34,652 nucleotides of DNA from a virus, in IMG/VR virus record IMGVR_UViG_3300025858_000008. One strand, written 5' to 3'. Both the position numbers and the translations under genes were made by a program. Below are positions 1 through 34,602 of the stretch, piece by piece. How positions within the stretch are numbered: the stretch's first letter is position 1; every line of letters begins with the position of its first letter. A model generated the notes under the pieces. The model saw nothing but the letters and a program-made list of their open reading frames with translations, made no database searches and was not told where the DNA came from.

Positions 1-127
1 AGCTCTGCTTGTTATCCAAAAACATACTAAGCAGACTAAACATGTCCCCGGTATTCGCCAAAAAGAGGCACAAATGACTGACATCCGCTATCAAGAGCAG
101 TGCGCTAACTGCGAGTGCGATATCTGG
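1..127. repeat. Terminal direct repeat copy 1, identical to 34526..34652. This is the assembly overlap of a circular or circularly permuted genome. It carries the 3-prime end of the membrane-protein gene 34387..34602 and the start of the remnant ORF 74..139.
   Basis: Read base by base: agctctgcttgttatcc...gcgagtgcgatatctgg is present at both ends of the window. Confidence 0.95.
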
Positions 128-139
128 CCTATCAGCTGA
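74..139 (+). pseudogene. Truncated 21-aa remnant (MTDIRYQEQCANCECDIWPIS*) of a zinc-ribbon gene, paralog of 2374..2535
   Basis: Positions 80..127 match 2386..2433 at 46 of 48 nt. The second CxxC pair is deleted. Weaker homology to the 3-prime end of the intact copy resumes out of frame at about 131..165. The ATG overlaps the TGA of the upstream gene. Confidence 0.6.
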
Positions 140-189
140 TGAGGAGGGAGAAGGTGAACAAACCTTATCACGAGACAGAGCATGGTGTT

Positions 190-235
190 CTGTATAAAAT
201 GCTTGACAAATATAGCTAATCATTTTGTGTTGCAC
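190..235 (+). promoter_or_regulatory. Candidate promoter P0 (CTTGACA, -35 hexamer at 203..208) driving the HNH-MTase cassette
   Basis: aaaatgCTTGACAaatatagctaatcaTTTTGTGTtgc lies in a non-coding gap, followed by an AAGGGG SD and ATG 248. There is no canonical TATAAT. Confidence 0.35.
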
Positions 236-247
236 TAAGGGGTAAAT

Positions 248-982
248 ATGATAAATTATTGTAAAACATGCGGAAAGAAATTGCGACACTTAAACGCAAT
301 ACAATGTAGAGAATGCTATTTGCAAAGCAGAAAAACAAATATATCAAAAACCATTTGTGCTGTTTGCGGCAAAGAATTTCAGTGCATACCATCAAGAATG
401 AATAAACGAGAAAGGCTTTGTTGTAGTAAAGAGTGTAGCTTTATTTTAAGAAACAAAAGAACTACAAGAGAATGCGCATATTGTGGCAAAAAGTTTACTG
501 GATTATACGCAGAAGTGCAACGTGGCAGGGCAAAATATTGTTGCAAAGAGTGTTATAATGCAGACAACAGGATAGAAAAAGTATGCCCAATATGCAAAAA
601 ACCATTTATCGTTTCAAAATCATTGTCAAATAGAACTTATTGTAGCATCCCATGCAAAGGCATTGGGCAAAGAAAAGGAAACAAAACATTGCTTGCAGCT
701 ATAAGAAGCACCTCGAGATATTACGAATGGAGAAAAAATGTTTATGAATCTTATAAGTTTATGTGTGCAGAATGTGGTGCAAGAATAACGCAAAAAAAGA
801 GACCCCACGCTCATCACATTATATTGCTTGCAGATTTGTTGACCAAATACGAAATAAAGACACTCGAGCAGGCATTATTGGATGAAAGAATTTGGGATGT
901 CAAGAACGGGGTATTGCTTTGTAAGCAATGCCACAACCTGCTCCACAGCAATCTTAAATTACAAATGGAAGTAGATTTATGA
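248..982 (+). CDS. HNH endonuclease with four tandem Cys4 zinc-finger-like modules
   Basis: Four repeats of CxxC-(10-13 aa)-C[CS]xxC, followed by a C-terminal HNH core (PHAHHI...NGVLLCKQCHNLLH). Confidence 0.8.
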   Translation: MINYCKTCGKKLRHLNAIQCRECYLQSRKTNISKTICAVCGKEFQCIPSRMNKRERLCCSKECSFILRNKRTTRECAYCGKKFTGLYAEVQRGRAKYCCKECYNADNRIEKVCPICKKPFIVSKSLSNRTYCSIPCKGIGQRKGNKTLLAAIRSTSRYYEWRKNVYESYKFMCAECGARITQKKRPHAHHIILLADLLTKYEIKTLEQALLDERIWDVKNGVLLCKQCHNLLHSNLKLQMEVDL

Positions 983-1809
983 TTACCCCATATCATGTTA
1001 GCGAATTTGGTTCATTATATCATGGTGATTGCTTGGAAGTGCTAAAGACCATGCCTGATGAGAGTGTGGAATTAACAGTTACATCTCCGCCTTATGATAA
1101 CTTAAGAGACTACAAGGGATATTCCTTTGACTTTGAAGGCATAGCCAAAGAATTACTCAGGGTTACTAAAAAAGGCGGGGTTGTCGTTTGGGTAGTTGGC
1201 GATGCGACAATAAATGGATCTGAATCTGGCACCAGCTTCAAACAAGCATTATATTTCAAAAAGATAGGATTTAATCTCCATGATACGATGATTTATGAAA
1301 AAGATACAATTTCGTTTCCAGACGCTAACAGGTATCAATCGCAGTTTGAATATATGTTTGTGCTAACTAAGGGGAAGCCAAATACATTCAATCCAATTAA
1401 AATAAAGTCATTATATCGTGCAGACAATAAACTCGTAACAGATAGGCAAAAAGACGGAACAACAAAGGGAAAACGAGTAGTTAGCAATTCCTCTGAGAGA
1501 ATTAAAGGAAATGTGTGGAGATATGCAGTGGGGTATAACAAATCATCATCATGCGATTATGTATTTAAGCATCCGGCGATATTTCCAGAAAAACTTGCTG
1601 CCGATCATATTCTGTCTTGGAGCAATGAAGGTGAAACTGTGCTTGACCCATTCAGTGGTAGTGGGACAACTATCACAATGTCTGCGAGATATTGCCGCAG
1701 ATACATTGGTATAGAGATAAGTGCAGAGTATTGCGAGATCGCAGCCCGACGCATCGAATCCGAGCTTGAGCAAACTACGATAAATCTGGAGGTATCAAAT
1801 GAATCCTAA
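979..1809 (+). CDS. DNA methyltransferase, beta-class N4/N6 amino-MTase. The SPPY motif hints at m4C.
   Basis: Motif IV (TSPPY) lies near the N-terminus and motif I (DPFSGSGTT) near the C-terminus. The start overlaps the HNH stop as ATGA. Confidence 0.85.
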   Translation: MITPYHVSEFGSLYHGDCLEVLKTMPDESVELTVTSPPYDNLRDYKGYSFDFEGIAKELLRVTKKGGVVVWVVGDATINGSESGTSFKQALYFKKIGFNLHDTMIYEKDTISFPDANRYQSQFEYMFVLTKGKPNTFNPIKIKSLYRADNKLVTDRQKDGTTKGKRVVSNSSERIKGNVWRYAVGYNKSSSCDYVFKHPAIFPEKLAADHILSWSNEGETVLDPFSGSGTTITMSARYCRRYIGIEISAEYCEIAARRIESELEQTTINLEVSNES

Positions 1810-2371
1810 GCAAGACATCCGCTATAATTTACCAAGGATAGTTACCAACCCGCAATTCTCATGTTATTGGGCTATGCCAAACAAGGATACATTTACCATT
1901 AAGCCCATAAATAACTTGCTATCGAGATATGTCGGTGATGGCAGAAATTGGATAGACCCAATGGCTGGGTTGAACAGCCCTGCCCAAGTCACAAATGATA
2001 TAAACCCAAATACAAACGCAATGTTTCACGTAGATGCAATGGAATTTATTGGCGATATGATAATCCTGTTTAATGGGGTATTATTCGACCCTCCATATAG
2101 TCCAAGACAGGTTTCTGAAATGTATAAAGGTTTTGGAGGCAAGGCTACTTCATGGGACACAACAATGTCTTATTACTCTAAGCTGAAAGATGCCATTTCC
2201 CCAATAATTAGAACGGGTGGCTATGCTATTTCATTTGGATGGAATAGCAATGGCTTTGGGATAGGCAGGGGATTTGAAGTGATAGAAATAATGCTTGTTA
2301 AGCATGGTGGGTGGCATAACGATACTATTGTAACAGTGGAGAGAAAGAAATGCAACATACGAAAGATTTGA
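1799..2371 (+). CDS. Small (190 aa) DPPY-motif DNA methyltransferase, probably N6-adenine
   Basis: IDPMAG (motif I-like) is followed by LFDPPYS (motif IV). The first 9 codons share a 21-nt identical stretch with the start of gene 2374..2535. Confidence 0.65.
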   Translation: MNPKQDIRYNLPRIVTNPQFSCYWAMPNKDTFTIKPINNLLSRYVGDGRNWIDPMAGLNSPAQVTNDINPNTNAMFHVDAMEFIGDMIILFNGVLFDPPYSPRQVSEMYKGFGGKATSWDTTMSYYSKLKDAISPIIRTGGYAISFGWNSNGFGIGRGFEVIEIMLVKHGGWHNDTIVTVERKKCNIRKI

Positions 2372-2373
2372 CA

Positions 2374-2535
2374 ATGCCTAAGCAAGACATCCGCTATCAA
2401 GAGCAGTGCGCTAACTGCGACTGCGACATCTGGATTCGTGACGGAGTGAGACACCTCATCTGCCCACACTGCGGGGCGAAGCTGAACGAATACTCATCAG
2501 AAGATGCAGAGGAGGGAGCGATTAATGAACCTTGA
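2374..2535 (+). CDS. Small zinc-ribbon protein (intact copy)
   Basis: MPKQDIRYQEQCANCDC...CPHCG contains two CxxC pairs. ATG 2374 lies 2 nt after the MTase stop. The track start at 2350 lies inside the MTase gene. Confidence 0.6.
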   Translation: MPKQDIRYQEQCANCDCDIWIRDGVRHLICPHCGAKLNEYSSEDAEEGAINEP

Positions 2536-2929
2536 AGAACTGCAAAAGCTGTGCGATAAGTCTATCCGGGCTATTGGCAAAATTGTCCCAAGCACTCAAA
2601 ATAGGATATATATGACCGCCATATCCGATCCCGACGGGAAGCATGGAGATGGTTCATATATGTATCCCAATACTGATTACCACATATCGAGGTGCTTCAT
2701 CAATCTATATGATTGCAATACATTAGATCAGGCATTGCATACCATAGCACATGAGATGGTGCATTGCCTGCTATATCGCTTTGATCACTTTTTTGCTGTC
2801 GTTAGCCCACTGCTGCTTTCCGGATCAGAGCAATCAATGTCTAAACTGCACTATCAAACTGCCGAGAACTTCGCAGAAATGATCACCCCAATAATCTACC
2901 AGTTATTGAAAAAGGAGAGAAAGCCATGA
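2525..2929 (+). CDS. SprT-like / HExxH zinc metallopeptidase-domain protein
   Basis: IAHEMVHCLLY motif. A GGAGGG SD lies upstream of ATG 2525. Confidence 0.5.
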   Translation: MNLEELQKLCDKSIRAIGKIVPSTQNRIYMTAISDPDGKHGDGSYMYPNTDYHISRCFINLYDCNTLDQALHTIAHEMVHCLLYRFDHFFAVVSPLLLSGSEQSMSKLHYQTAENFAEMITPIIYQLLKKERKP

Positions 2930-3111
2930 ACCTGAATAAATGCCGTGGCTGTCATTATGTAGTCTATACCCCCGATCCGATGAACTCGTGGTGTTGGAAA
3001 GACCAGAAAAACATCAGAGACATGGTTCGTTGTGCGCATGGGCATATTCCGGTAATGACAAATAACAAGATCAAGAAAGCTATTGGCAGCCCCAAAGTGG
3101 GGAGGTGGTAA
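2926..3111 (+). CDS. Small Cys/His-rich hypothetical protein
   Basis: AAGGAG SD. The ORF contains CRGC...CWK...CAHGH. ATGA overlap with the upstream gene. Confidence 0.5.
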   Translation: MNLNKCRGCHYVVYTPDPMNSWCWKDQKNIRDMVRCAHGHIPVMTNNKIKKAIGSPKVGRW

Positions 3112-3113
3112 GC

Positions 3114-3524
3114 ATGATAACGCTAACCATACCAATTAAAGCAGTTCCTAAACAATCGTTCCGGATAGGCAAACACAATTACCAATCAGCTCCAGTTCGC
3201 AGGTTTGCCAAAGCGGTCAAGATGTTAGCCTTGTCGCAAACCAAGCCATCTGACAGGTTGCTATTGTGTGCATTATCTGTTGACATTGACTTTCGGTATG
3301 CACTGCCAAAAGGAACGCCTAAGCACATCAAAGACAGACTTGCAAGCGGTGCGGTTATCCCGAAACTAACCAGACCGGATATTGATAATCTGTGCAAGGG
3401 ATTATTAGATGCTCTTTCCGGGGTCATGTGGGAAGATGATGCGATAATTACCAGCTTAACGGCAAGAAAAGTTTGGGCTGCCAAAGATGAGATTGTGGTA
3501 AAGATTTCTGTTGACACAACGTAG
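3114..3524 (+). CDS. rusA: RusA-family Holliday junction resolvase
   Basis: Typical RusA length and motifs (PKQSFR..., RPDIDNLCKGLLDALSGVMWEDD). GGAGG SD before ATG 3114. Confidence 0.8.
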   Translation: MITLTIPIKAVPKQSFRIGKHNYQSAPVRRFAKAVKMLALSQTKPSDRLLLCALSVDIDFRYALPKGTPKHIKDRLASGAVIPKLTRPDIDNLCKGLLDALSGVMWEDDAIITSLTARKVWAAKDEIVVKISVDTT

Positions 3525-3566
3525 TAACCTAAATACATTGTCAATGATCGTTCATTAGGTACTCCG

Positions 3567-3603
3567 AAGCTCGTTGACCTCCCGGTTGACGGGCTTTTTC
3601 TTT
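3567..3603 (+). terminator. Candidate intrinsic terminator ending the plus-strand arm
   Basis: Imperfect hairpin aagctcgttgac/gttgacgggctt followed by a tttttcttt run. Confidence 0.4.
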
Positions 3604-12737: not shown

Positions 12738-13063
12738 TATCGTTTCGCCCTTGCTTTAGTGATTTCTGCTTGCTGTTTTTCATTGCGTATTCGGATCATT
12801 TCCGAACGCCCAGCGGTAAACATTGACATAAACCAATGCGGTTGCAGCTCCCATGAACCTGGCAGCGGGTAGAGATTAACCCCTGCGTCAAACTCATACA
12901 GATAGCGAAGGACAAAGGCAGAGCGTTCTGTAATTTTTGCGCCCTTATGATCGCAGTCATTTTCAAGCTCACAGAACCGGCAGAACTGATATTCGCCTGC
13001 CGGTGTCTGCAAAACTTGTTCTGCAAAGCGCCCTTGCTGTTCTAAGAATTGCACCGCTTGCAT
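12737..13063 (-). CDS. Tail assembly chaperone, T-like part, expressed as a G-T fusion by -1 frameshift
   Basis: In the -1 frame relative to 13063..13452. The slippery site lies immediately upstream. Confidence 0.7.
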   Translation of the reverse strand: MQAVQFLEQQGRFAEQVLQTPAGEYQFCRFCELENDCDHKGAKITERSAFVLRYLYEFDAGVNLYPLPGSWELQPHWFMSMFTAGRSEMIRIRNEKQQAEITKARAKR

Positions 13064-13452
13064 TAGTTTTTTACATCAGATTCCAGATTGAGGTCGTTAG
13101 TGCCTTCGTGGGTTTTGATCGCCTCTACCAATGCAGAGCGTACATCTTTAGGCATCAGTTCAGCATTAGCCACGGTGATAGGCTCATCCAGATTCCAGCT
13201 ATCAAGTGCATTCATAATCAGAGCAGTAAAGTAAAGCTCCATATTGCTCTCGATCTCCGGCTCCGGCTTGCCTTCGTTGCTCATTTTCACAATCATAAAG
13301 GAAGCCTGAACCGCTCCCCTCTGCCTTGCGTTCATGGTATGCAGTCCGAACTCCCAAACAGCACCATTCGTATCTGTGAACTCGAACCGGTAATTGAAAT
13401 CGGTTCTGGCACTGATCAAGCTCGGTTTGCAGGTTGTGATCTTCTCTCCCAT
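13063..13452 (-). CDS. Tail assembly chaperone (G-like)
   Basis: Lies between the major tail and tape measure genes. Ends in gtA AAA AAC TAA. Confidence 0.7.
   Translation of the reverse strand: MGEKITTCKPSLISARTDFNYRFEFTDTNGAVWEFGLHTMNARQRGAVQASFMIVKMSNEGKPEPEIESNMELYFTALIMNALDSWNLDEPITVANAELMPKDVRSALVEAIKTHEGTNDLNLESDVKN
13066..13072 (-). promoter_or_regulatory. -1 programmed ribosomal frameshift slippery heptamer A_AAA_AAC
   Basis: The minus-strand sequence is gat gtA AAA AAC taa tgc. A -1 slip reads AAA AAA CTA ATG CAA, in frame with ORF 12737..13063. Confidence 0.7.
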
Positions 13453-22546: not shown

Positions 22547-23734
22547 CTATGAGACTTTTTGTATTTCGCCATTTATTTTAATCTCAAGGTCAGGATCAAG
22601 CTTCCGCATTCGGTCAATAACGATCTGGCAATAAGTAGGCTCAATCTCCATGCCATAGCACTTTCTGCCGAGCTGGTGCGCTGCGACCATTGTGGTCCCT
22701 GAGCCAATGAACGGATCATAAACAGTTTTGGCAGTGTGATTTCTAATGGGCTTTGCCATGCATTCTACAGGTTTTTGGGTGCTATGCCCAGTTTCATTTT
22801 TCATGTTTTTGTCAATATCCCATACGGTGGTTTCTGTTCTTGATCCTGCCCATAGGTGGTTTTTGCCAGATTTAACACAATACCAAATTGGCTCGTGCTT
22901 ATGGTGATAATTGCCCATTCCAATAACAAGGCTGTTTTTATTCCAAATTATAAGGTTTATTGGATCATACCCTGCATCGATAAGATTTTGTAAAACCTCG
23001 CCAGTTTTAACGCCAGCATGATACACATACGCTACTTGAGATTGAGAAAGTTCATAGGCCGTTGTCCATGTTGCGTTATTGTCGTTAGTAACCTTCCCTG
23101 TCGCAGTGCCTTTTTTACTTAGGCCAGCTCCCACTCTCCACTCAGCATCATAATTAACTCCGTAAGGTGGGTCTGTAACCATTATTTCAGCAATGGCATT
23201 GTCCATTAGCTTGTCCACGTCATCTTTTTTGGTGCTATCTCCACACATCAGCCTGTGAATTTCTTTGCCGTCTTTCATAAGCGAATATATGTCGCCATAT
23301 TGGATGTCTGTTGTGATCTGCTCTGGCTCTTCGTAATCATCATCTTGCACTTCAGCAGTATCGCCTGCATGTATCTCAGGTATCTCAATCCCCATCTCTG
23401 CAAAGTCGAATTCTGCAAAGTCAGCTTCCAGAGCTTCAAAGTCCCACTCACCGAGAGGCACGTTGTCTTTAATGATAAACTCCTTCTTTTCCTCTGGTGT
23501 TAGATCGGCTGCGGATTTTACCCAGCTATCGGGTATTTCGGTCATTTTCAGGTTTTTAATGGCCTGAAGCCTCTGATTACCGCCCAGCACTTGCATAGTT
23601 TCGGGATCGTAAACGATAGGCCGCAGTTCCATCATCTTTGGAAAGTTCTGAATTGACGCAGTTAGCTTTGCCAGATGATCGGGACTGATCCGGCGTGGGT
23701 TCTTAGGATTCAGTTTAAGTTCTTTAACCTTCAT
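22547..23734 (-). CDS. ParB-like nuclease domain fused to a beta-class DNA methyltransferase (DPPY)
   Basis: N-terminal LKLNPKNPRRI...LGGNQRL (ParB/Srx-like), then TDPPYG and DPFIGSGTT. ATG 23734 is preferred because the track start at 23806 is TTG. Confidence 0.85.
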   Translation of the reverse strand: MKVKELKLNPKNPRRISPDHLAKLTASIQNFPKMMELRPIVYDPETMQVLGGNQRLQAIKNLKMTEIPDSWVKSAADLTPEEKKEFIIKDNVPLGEWDFEALEADFAEFDFAEMGIEIPEIHAGDTAEVQDDDYEEPEQITTDIQYGDIYSLMKDGKEIHRLMCGDSTKKDDVDKLMDNAIAEIMVTDPPYGVNYDAEWRVGAGLSKKGTATGKVTNDNNATWTTAYELSQSQVAYVYHAGVKTGEVLQNLIDAGYDPINLIIWNKNSLVIGMGNYHHKHEPIWYCVKSGKNHLWAGSRTETTVWDIDKNMKNETGHSTQKPVECMAKPIRNHTAKTVYDPFIGSGTTMVAAHQLGRKCYGMEIEPTYCQIVIDRMRKLDPDLEIKINGEIQKVS

Positions 23735-23763
23735 GAGACACAAACTAATTAGACTTGAAATGT

Positions 23764-23769
23764 TGTCAA
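23764..23769 (-). promoter_or_regulatory. Candidate -35 box (CTTGACA on the minus strand) for the ParB-MTase/late arm
   Basis: cCTTGACAacatttcaagtctaattagTTTGTGTctcATG. The TTTGTGT element is shared with P0 and P3. Confidence 0.3.
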
Positions 23770-23835
23770 GGGATAATCCTGTTTTTGGAAAATCGGGAGC
23801 GCACAATATATATCATCTTTACGAATGTAAAGTGA

Positions 23836-33533: not shown

Positions 33534-33924
33534 AGATCAATGGTACAAGTATGACGGCTGCTACTTGCAGTTTATGGGCGTTAGCAAGACTGGCAAAAAC
33601 CAGTTCCGCTATGCCGGAGACGATTGCAATATCTATATCGATGTTGAGGACAAGCTCAAGCCGTCCTCGCTGCTTCCCGACTTCAGCAATGCGAAGGAAG
33701 GGGACGAGTGCTTTAGTGCTGAAGATGATTTCTGCATAATGTTGCCATGCCATGACAAGCATTTTGTTCCGGCAATGAATAGCAATGGTGGTTTTGATGT
33801 ATTTCTACCAGATGGAAGATTGACAGCAGAAAGTAAGCACCCCACGCTATTCAACAGCTTCGCTCAGTTCCTCGCCTACTGGCAGGAAGAGGCACTCAAG
33901 CTGAAGGGAGGCTCCGATGCCTAA
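33517..33924 (+). CDS. Hypothetical protein
   Basis: Codirectional ORF of 135 aa. Confidence 0.45.
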   Translation: MMDFIKDQWYKYDGCYLQFMGVSKTGKNQFRYAGDDCNIYIDVEDKLKPSSLLPDFSNAKEGDECFSAEDDFCIMLPCHDKHFVPAMNSNGGFDVFLPDGRLTAESKHPTLFNSFAQFLAYWQEEALKLKGGSDA

Positions 33925-34006
33925 CTGCCTTCACATAGCCATCGCCTTCGCTATAGCCTTCCTGATGTGCTGGCTCGCATATAGACTGATGAGGGGGAGA
34001 AAATGA
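33917..34006 (+). CDS. Tiny TM peptide (29 aa), absent from the ORF track
   Basis: MPNCLHIAIAFAIAFLMCWLAYRLMRGRK. Overlaps both neighbours. Confidence 0.35.
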   Translation: MPNCLHIAIAFAIAFLMCWLAYRLMRGRK

Positions 34007-34386: not shown

Positions 34387-34602
34387 ATGGATAAAACTAT
34401 AACAACACTTAAAAAAATACTTGCTTGGGCAATAGCCACGCCGTTCATAGTTATTACCTTTTCCCTATACTGGATAGGATACATCCCATATTATGCAGCA
34501 ATAGCAATTTGGACACTAAACGATAAGCTCTGCTTGTTATCCAAAAACATACTAAGCAGACTAAACATGTCCCCGGTATTCGCCAAAAAGAGGCACAAAT
34601 GA
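34387..34602 (+). CDS. Small two-TM membrane protein
   Basis: AAGGAG SD 8 nt before ATG 34387; the track start at 34381 is TTG. Its stop overlaps the ATG of the zinc-ribbon remnant. Confidence 0.5.
   Translation: MDKTITTLKKILAWAIATPFIVITFSLYWIGYIPYYAAIAIWTLNDKLCLLSKNILSRLNMSPVFAKKRHK

Follow-up and report, generated by a model that had tools for sequence, protein, structure and literature searches.

A candidate composite recombination scar carrying an HNH nuclease and two DNA methylases in a variable, probably anti-restriction, phage locus

Analysis of the viral stretch IMGVR_UViG_3300025858_000008 (34,652 nt; the whole of it is called the window hereafter) revealed that a zinc-ribbon gene (Zn) occurs near position 1 both as a 5′ stub and as an intact copy, with an HNH nuclease gene and two DNA methyltransferase genes (MT1 and MT2) in between. 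A preliminary description of this region had proposed a single, recently acquired nuclease-plus-methylase module of an undescribed type that reuses a short gene-boundary sequence as its recombination joint. The ends of the window share a terminal overlap of 127 nt, which indicates a circular genome of 34,525 bp and therefore places the gene at 34387–34602 directly upstream of the Zn stub at position 74, its stop overlapping the start of the stub (ATGA). The genes of the block are all co-oriented and overlap or abut one another in an operon-like manner, and all features given below lie on the (+) strand unless stated otherwise.

The first copy of Zn (ZnA, 74–127) is a 54-nt 5′ stub of 18 codons. 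As the preliminary description had noticed, positions 80–127 match 2386–2433 at 46 of 48 nt (with mismatches at 115 and 121), and the open reading frame (ORF) starting at 74 comprises 21 codons (74–139); this ORF runs on to a stop at 137–139, and homology to every Zn allele stops at 127. What follows had been taken for the 3′ end of Zn, resumed after a loss of ~60 nt. We found that positions 123–175 fit better to L003, a contig overlapping L002, which is a syntenic relative 87% identical over the tail genes. Specifically, the alignment score was 46 against L003 10–60, which contains the tail of a gene for a small hydrophobic protein of 29 amino acids (aa) and a methylase start (MNKPYHE...), versus 23 against the Zn 3′ end. 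An internally deleted full-length Zn gene was rejected as an explanation of the first copy because the sequence past 127 consists of the 29-aa-gene tail and a methylase start. The second copy of the tail and boundary of the 29-aa gene (CTGGCCTATCAGCTGATGAGGAGGGAGAAGGTGA; aligned to L003 10–60 and to window 33974–34006) occupies 124–157, and 0.01 occurrences of this motif would be expected by chance. It overlaps the last CTGG of the ZnA stub, and the sharing of these four bases by both sides suggests a microhomology joint. Both anchors of the locus are duplicated, 33979–34006 recurring at 124–157 and 74–127 at 2380–2433, and the two 29-aa tails in the window genome are ~79% alike.

The 29-aa ORF (33917–34006) forms the left anchor of a variable locus. 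Its resident tail and boundary lie at 33979–34006 and end in ...ATAGACTGATGAGGGGGAGAAAATGA. The gene next downstream of this boundary is a methylase in L003, an intact Zn gene in L036 and a 51-aa gene in the window genome. The locus is thus filled differently in each case: the 29-aa gene and then Zn in L036; the 29-aa gene, a methylase and then Zn in L003; and three small genes in the window phage (34003–34158, 34178–34384 and 34387–34602; gene calls in L006 and L009). The nuclease-methylase block is missing from L036, from L003 and from a putative cassette-free genome (V2) described below. Methylase arrays are common at such loci, as in L019 (1026–4102), where three tandem N6/N4 methylase genes are found with an HNH unit in the third.

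Downstream of the second 29-aa tail, positions 154–195 (VNKPYHETEHGVLY) hold the first 14 codons of an interrupted methylase, i.e., the 5′ half of the original MT1, and match the methylase starts of L003 and L013. This stub ends in ...TGTAT, the same as at all other HNH copies. It is followed by an HNH homing-endonuclease unit of 825 nt (196–1020; PF13391, phrog_1271), which consists of a conserved leader (196–247) with TTGACA at 203–208 and a Shine-Dalgarno (SD) sequence AAGGGG at 237–242, an HNH ORF (248–982) that is separate and has this SD of its own, and a replacement methylase start with 14 codons (979–1020; MITPYHVSEFGSLY) that overlaps the HNH stop. The HNH domain was recognized by PF13391 HNH_2 (E = 5.6e-5, 23.4 bits, with a cut-off of 21) and by phrog_1271 (5e-25), and the catalytic residues are present (HAHH...N...CKQCHNLLH).

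Relatives of this HNH protein (84–99% aa identity) were found in three further contexts (L014/L021/L023, L019/L020 and L024–L031). In all four contexts, every HNH copy displays the same order of a methylase 5′ stub (MIYHETEHG[VT]LY) ending in ...TGTAT, the leader and the HNH ATG, with the common left edge ...TGTAT|[AC]AAATGCTTGACA[AG]ATATAGCTAATCATTTTGT.... Along the window, identity to L019 is <0.5 left of ~165, ≥0.9 at 191–730, 0.7–0.8 at 731–930, 0.97–1.0 at 941–1015 and ~0.5 from ~1030. L019 is identical over the first 14 codons of MT1 (979–1020), though the methylase bodies are different alleles. The left and right edges of the unit thus map to a single position of a methylase gene, which separates ...LY from HGDC.... 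Uninterrupted methylases read MIYHETEHGVLY-HGDC in L013 and MNKPYHEHGVLY-CGDC in L003 (site in L013 / L003: GGNGTNYTGTAT|CAYGGNGAYTGC), and the junction of the HNH unit with the MT1 body reads TCATTATAT|CATGGTGATTGC. We read the stub at 154–195 and the MT1 body as halves of one original gene because the stub and the start of the body both resemble L003 (17/18 nt and 78.6%, respectively).

In its present form, MT1 (979–1809) encodes an N6/N4 DNA methyltransferase of 276 aa (PF01555, 1.1e-45) and represents, from codon 15 onward, the 3′ half of the interrupted gene. Over its C-terminal 165 nt, it shares 71% identity with the methylase of L003, a gene that adjoins Zn directly. An exhaustive HMMER search with MT1 yielded nearest representatives of ≤58% identity, whose N-termini were uninformative on the original start.

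The pN/pS (nonsynonymous to synonymous polymorphism) ratio of the HNH gene is 0.24–0.41 among four copies, and 10 of the 12 members of the HNH cluster are 244 aa long (the others 256 and 270 aa); the gene is under purifying selection and is no decaying relic. The part of the ORF containing the catalytic motif (731–930) is 70–80% identical to L019/L024 versus 93–100% elsewhere in the unit, so that the gene is internally mosaic and its domains may have been exchanged between alleles of the endonuclease. What follows HNH in the L014 and L024 contexts is a 3′ methylase remnant (IA[AS]RRIESELDKTNIFMDGRRI and a stop) and then another methylase. An intron- or intein-borne endonuclease was rejected: an Rfam search of 1–2700 at E ≤ 1 found no family and no intron, the HNH gene is a separate ORF, and the methylase frame of the stub (154–195) is closed by a TAA at 217–219. 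Searches with HNH returned no match in a PDB sequence search and only an already known contig in the metagenome collection. The only tblastn match among GenBank phages (28%) lies in a 620-aa ORF of Escherichia phage BUCT618 (L032, 36396–38258), which is annotated as a site-specific DNA-methyltransferase and may perhaps be another nuclease-methylase association.

The preliminary description had also credited the enclosed segment with its own CTTGACA promoter, a claim that did not survive. In a sigma-70 scan, the TTGACA at 203–208 had no acceptable −10 partner (promoters of a non-sigma-70 type are possible), and promoter-like sites in 1–3600 were not enriched, with 8 observed versus 10.8 expected. 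The genome contains 50 TTGACA hexamers, and no terminators were found in 1–3600. The hexamer is rather a conserved part of the HNH leader because the same leader precedes the HNH ATG in every copy.

The second methylase, MT2 (1799–2371; 190 aa, DPPY motif; phrog_11619, 8e-39), starts with codons of Zn. Positions 1787–1825 represent the native junction between an upstream gene and the Zn start, including a ribosome-binding site (RBS; GGAGG, 1788–1792) and Zn codons 1–9 (MNPKQDIRY, 1799–1825). This junction is identical at 39 of 39 nt to L012 59–97, where L012 runs straight on into a Zn gene 90% identical to window 2377–2516, and the Zn proteins P0130 and P0131 begin with MNPKQDIRYQEQC. The residues conserved across the MT2 family begin with F19 and W24, which precede M26, and no start codon other than 1799 is available; the nearest MT2 homolog has a different N-terminus of similar length, beginning with MVTNQNYDMPKL. 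Because of the L012 junction, the Zn starts, the need of F19 and W24 for the start at 1799, and the differing homolog, the chimeric N-terminus of MT2 recognized in the preliminary description is real. As far as the sequence tells, MT2 uses the former initiation region of Zn (RBS and ATG), the inserted MT2 DNA proper being 1826–2376. The neighbourhood of the MT2 homolog P0010 is unrelated and has no Zn gene. The 21-mer CCTAAGCAAGACATCCGCTAT is indeed identical at 1805–1825 and 2377–2397, and a 71% copy is found at 71–91; it represents either the start common to two parental Zn alleles or a duplication, and is no recombination site.

The intact zinc-ribbon gene (ZnC, 2374–2535) encodes 53 aa with two CxxC pairs (homologs P0001–P0006 and P0127–P0134), and its ATG at 2374 lies 2 nt past the MT2 stop with no obvious RBS. 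An alternative start, ATG 2350 with the SD sequence GGAGAG inside the 3′ end of MT2, would give 61 aa, as called in ENA/MGnify, and Zn may be translated from there rather than from 2374. The Zn N-termini differ (MTDIRY vs M(N)PKQDIRY), each matching distinct alleles of other phages. As to the Lar-like family, ZnC reached only phrog_6422 at E = 3e-3 and did not reach PF14354. In some relatives (P0128–P0132; L012 71–490), the zinc ribbon forms the N-terminal part of a 132–139-aa protein, and the second half of the fused relatives P0128 and P0131 matches Lar-like PF14354 at 21 bits, below the cut-off of 28.6.

The G+C content is 38.2% at 128–2376 versus 45.2% for the rest of the genome, the lowest value among all 2,249-nt segments of the genome (mean 44.8%, standard deviation 2.2), so that the AT-richness of the enclosed segment, earlier counted by hand, holds in a sliding-window profile. 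The same sequence (99.96–100% identity) was recovered from JGI 3300010352, JGI 3300009692, ENA ERZ795026 and Logan SRR5007244, assemblies with an implied k of 127, 123, 55 and 31, respectively.

The assembly of JGI 3300009692 provided an indication that genomes with and without the block co-exist. Here, the circle consists of three unitigs that overlap one another by 123 nt: L010 reaches up to window 127, L005 covers window 5–2550 as a single piece, and L007 starts at window 2428, the sum closing exactly (21701 + 10647 + 2546 − 3 × 123 = 34525). The graph branches at 127|128 and 2427|2428, with nodes at 5–127 (left) and 2428–2550 (right). MEGAHIT runs at JGI go up to k = 123 (PMC6243002), a k at which an imperfect repeat of 48 nt is unable to cause branching. 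In a de Bruijn simulation that combined the window genome (V1) with a variant joining 127 to 2434, k = 123 gave nodes of exactly 5–127 and 2428–2550, and k = 127 gave a left node of 1–127, i.e., the terminal overlap of the window itself, while simulated crossovers elsewhere in the repeat yielded other nodes. That the window overlap ends at 127 by coincidence or as an assembler chimera was rejected. These observations are consistent with a cassette-free genome (127 joined to 2434) in sample 3300009692, which would encode an intact Zn protein, MTDIRYQEQCANCECDIWIRDGVRHLICPHCGAKLNEYSSEDAEEGAINEP. Beyond the cassette bubble, the graph has only a single-node break at 13074; as there is no other branch, the two genomes appear isogenic elsewhere and the gain or loss recent. 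The cassette-free variant may be parental, or it may have arisen as a pop-out between the 48-nt repeats; a single-strand-annealing product retains the markers of one repeat half the time.

The cassette-free alleles envisaged in the preliminary description were found in part: L012 lacks MT2, L036 and L003 carry other fillings, and the graph implies one, while a contig of the exact variant was not retrieved. Exact searches with a 26-mer and a 23-mer from the Zn start gave 0 matches in IMG/VR and JGI metagenome contigs, collections that do not contain the source samples.

We propose, with a probability of roughly 70%, that three superimposed events left a composite scar here, in a variable and probably anti-restriction locus whose anchors are the 29-aa gene on the left and Zn on the right. 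In the order of events that we infer, the HNH unit would first have entered MT1 of a donor phage (29-aa gene, MT1, Zn) between ...LY and HGDC..., with the HNH enzyme presumably cleaving at LY|HGDC. The unit would have brought its leader, the HNH gene and a new start with 14 codons translationally coupled to the HNH stop; MT1 would have stayed whole, its old first 14 codons being left upstream as a stub. In a second event, MT2 would have been joined in frame after Zn codon 9, taking the RBS and ATG of Zn, with an intact Zn gene 2 nt past the MT2 stop. In a third event, the donor block would have become linked to a resident genome in which the 29-aa gene was followed by three small genes and Zn, through a crossover inside the shared Zn gene (right of 2427) and an illegitimate joint of Zn nt 54 to the donor 29-aa-gene tail, possibly via the CTGG microhomology. 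This could have proceeded by unequal crossing-over or by one-ended break repair and subsequent microhomology end-joining, and it would have duplicated both anchors and stacked two alternative fillings in tandem. An illegitimate joint in the 5′ end of Zn would then have formed twice, at nt 27 and at nt 54. A RecT-family single-strand-annealing recombinase encoded by the phage (26921–28048; PF03837 on the called gene) could plausibly catalyse exchanges over short homologies here, and HNH-induced breaks could plausibly do so too (PMC3945230, PMC10448857, PMC13096335). The block adds two orphan methylases beside the Zn gene, which fits an anti-restriction hot spot.

Of the history put forward earlier, recombinational gain stands, as do the foreign composition and the insertion-free alleles, while one module with one reused joint gives way to three events nested in one another, each with a joint of its own (Zn nt 27, Zn nt 54 and methylase codon 14). 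We take the repeats for homologous gene ends that stem from two parental phages, such as would remain after unequal or homology-facilitated illegitimate recombination. Only the HNH unit is an autonomous mobile part, and it is at home in the methylase gene rather than in Zn. The components are all of known kinds (mosaicism of phage genomes, a homing endonuclease of the free-standing type, and orphan methylases). We read the region as phage mosaicism brought about by recombination of the unequal or illegitimate type, with a homing endonuclease in addition, and not as a new class of mobile element.

We also consider, at somewhat less than even odds, that the HNH unit represents a homing-endonuclease family specialised on the conserved LY|HGDC site near the 5′ end of phage N6/N4 methylase genes, with a coupled start and 14 codons that re-initiate the methylase in place of an intron, an intein or in-frame read-through, and with breaks that seed the stacking of anti-restriction genes. 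The self-supplied gene start would be the only mildly new feature, and we found no description of it.

Several points weigh against the composite scar and its details. As the donor phage was not found, the CTGG microhomology is putative, and so are the directions assigned to the individual events. Both illegitimate joints fall within the first 54 nt of Zn, which may reflect a break hot spot that the model leaves unexplained. The replacement-start form of the HNH unit is known from two contexts only (the window and L019/L020), and the shared 14 codons could also be explained by a crossover at the conserved TATCAYGGNGAYTGC motif. Lastly, the case for the cassette-free genome consists of the graph topology of one sample and the break position of the window itself; the predicted hybrid Zn protein (by exact look-up) and the 240-nt unitig of the variant were not retrieved.

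Among the alternatives, the one that fares best, though we consider it unlikely, is that the whole nuclease-methylase block moves as one mobile module, directed at the Zn start through a dedicated joint, e.g., with HNH cutting the Zn gene. The block does carry an HNH gene, both Zn-linked joints lie within the first 54 nt of Zn, the differences between stub and intact copy at 115 and 121 (13 and 7 nt from the joint) resemble the immunity polymorphisms of homing donors, and the empty allele deduced from the graph is cleanly cut at 127|2434. However, the conserved site of the HNH unit is in methylase genes in all four contexts and never beside a Zn stub, the two Zn joints differ in position (nt 27 and nt 54) and are attached to unrelated sequence, and the left end of the block copies the tail of another gene, as expected from unequal crossing-over. 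Moreover, the block contains no recombinase or terminal inverted repeats and was not found elsewhere. A transposon or insertion sequence was rejected, as there is no transposase domain and no inverted repeats occur at 128/2433 or 1826/2376, and so was a site-specific (integrase- or integron-like) cassette, since no recombinase lies in or beside the block and the joints lack one defined core site.

Less likely again is a classical moron, i.e., a self-contained transcription unit, equipped with a promoter and a terminator, that landed between two genes. Morons were reportedly described in such terms by Juhala and colleagues in 2000, and like them the block brings extra genes of deviant composition that are missing from relatives at the same place, with a conserved TTGACA upstream of HNH. 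Unlike morons, it has no promoter-like pair and no terminator detected in our scans, its genes are co-oriented and abutting, and the insertions are inside genes.

A slimmer chance is left to a history without a foreign donor, in which a Zn-methylase unit was tandemly duplicated in situ in a single lineage and its first copies decayed. Such duplication could account for gene starts and a 29-aa tail that recur as direct repeats, but the enclosed DNA differs in composition (38% vs 45% G+C), the Zn N-termini match distinct alleles in other phages, and the two 29-aa tails are only ~79% alike. An assembly chimera in which the 48-nt and 21-nt matches misjoined two genomes, a danger that the preliminary description had itself raised and that the metagenomic origin and a contig break coinciding with the repeat end might suggest, is practically negligible because at least four independent assemblies, made from different samples and with different assemblers, agree across all joints, L005 spans 5–2550, and the longest exact shared run (35 nt) is far below k = 55 to 141.

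Returning to the composite scar, its components can be set beside systems described earlier. Phages carry free-standing HNH homing endonuclease genes, such as T4 mobE and seg, which are found at recombination boundaries (PMC2790892, PMC10448857). Like these, the window unit encodes an HNH nuclease with repeated Cys-rich DNA-binding modules under purifying selection, occurs sporadically at one precise site in a conserved gene with co-inherited flanks, and marks a boundary of genetic exchange. Unlike these, it lies inside the coding region of a host gene without an intron or intein and, in two contexts, apparently re-initiates that gene via its own start and 14 codons, so that the gene is neither split nor spliced. 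A selfish HNH element inside a DNA methylase gene, with no detectable self-splicing, has been described in actinophages (ShiLan type; PMC11855218). The window HNH likewise sits inside a phage DNA methylase gene without detectable self-splicing; however, the ShiLan element reads through in frame with the methylase and hides HNH in another frame, whereas the window unit has a stop at 217–219, a separate ORF and a downstream restart. No sequence relationship between the two was found, and a ShiLan-type in-frame insertion was rejected, as the stub frame (154–195) ends at that TAA.

Phage mosaicism is attributed to illegitimate or relaxed homologous recombination (De Paepe et al. 2014, PMC3945230; Hendrix model). 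As in such mosaic systems, the window genome encodes an annealing recombinase (RecT), alternative gene sets lie between conserved anchors, and of the proposed joints one would lie in shared sequence, the other putatively at a microhomology of a few bases. Such a combination of joints would recall the homology-facilitated illegitimate recombination reportedly described by de Vries and Wackernagel in 2002. Unlike in the mosaicism model, the illegitimate joint falls inside an anchor gene, leaving a stub of it, and this twice at Zn. Phages that integrate at tRNA genes or icd are said (Campbell, 1992) to replace the end of their target gene, and here too the inserted DNA supplies a substitute gene end and the interrupted gene stays functional; however, those phages use integrases and att sites and replace 3′ ends, whereas the window unit has an HNH nuclease and replaces a 5′ end.

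If the proposed history holds, the locus is an unusually legible record of how anti-restriction genes build up in a phage, with joints readable to the base. One sample apparently contains isogenic genomes with and without the 2.3-kb block, which makes the rates of gain and loss, the role of RecT and the activity of HNH testable. A self-supplied start would, if true, be a fourth harmless option for homing endonucleases within genes, after introns, inteins and gene splitting.

No close relative of the phage was found in GenBank phages or IMG/VR: megablast of 1–3000 and of 3000–27900 against GenBank phages gave no match, and IMG/VR locus searches seeded with the Zn protein and the downstream 134-aa protein (2525–2929) gave no relatives. 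GTDB genomes searched with a 30-mer of the HNH leader and with the terminase gave no match either and thus pointed to no host. The remaining genome carries tailed-phage genes, including a terminase, an SPP1-type portal, a capsid, RecT and a third methylase, and the Zn gene is followed by RusA (3105–3524). The third DNA methylase (22547–23806, − strand; 419 aa, with PF01555 in its C-terminal half) adjoins the terminase genes and brings the total in this phage to three. Elsewhere, two JGI assemblies of the circle break at one right-hand coordinate, 13074|13075 (window 12948–13075). Specifically, the k = 127 record Ga0116247_10002046 ends at 12948–13074, and the k = 123 unitigs L007 and L010 overlap at 12952–13074; this shared break implies an extra out-branch at 13074 in both samples, be it a minor variant or some kind of end.

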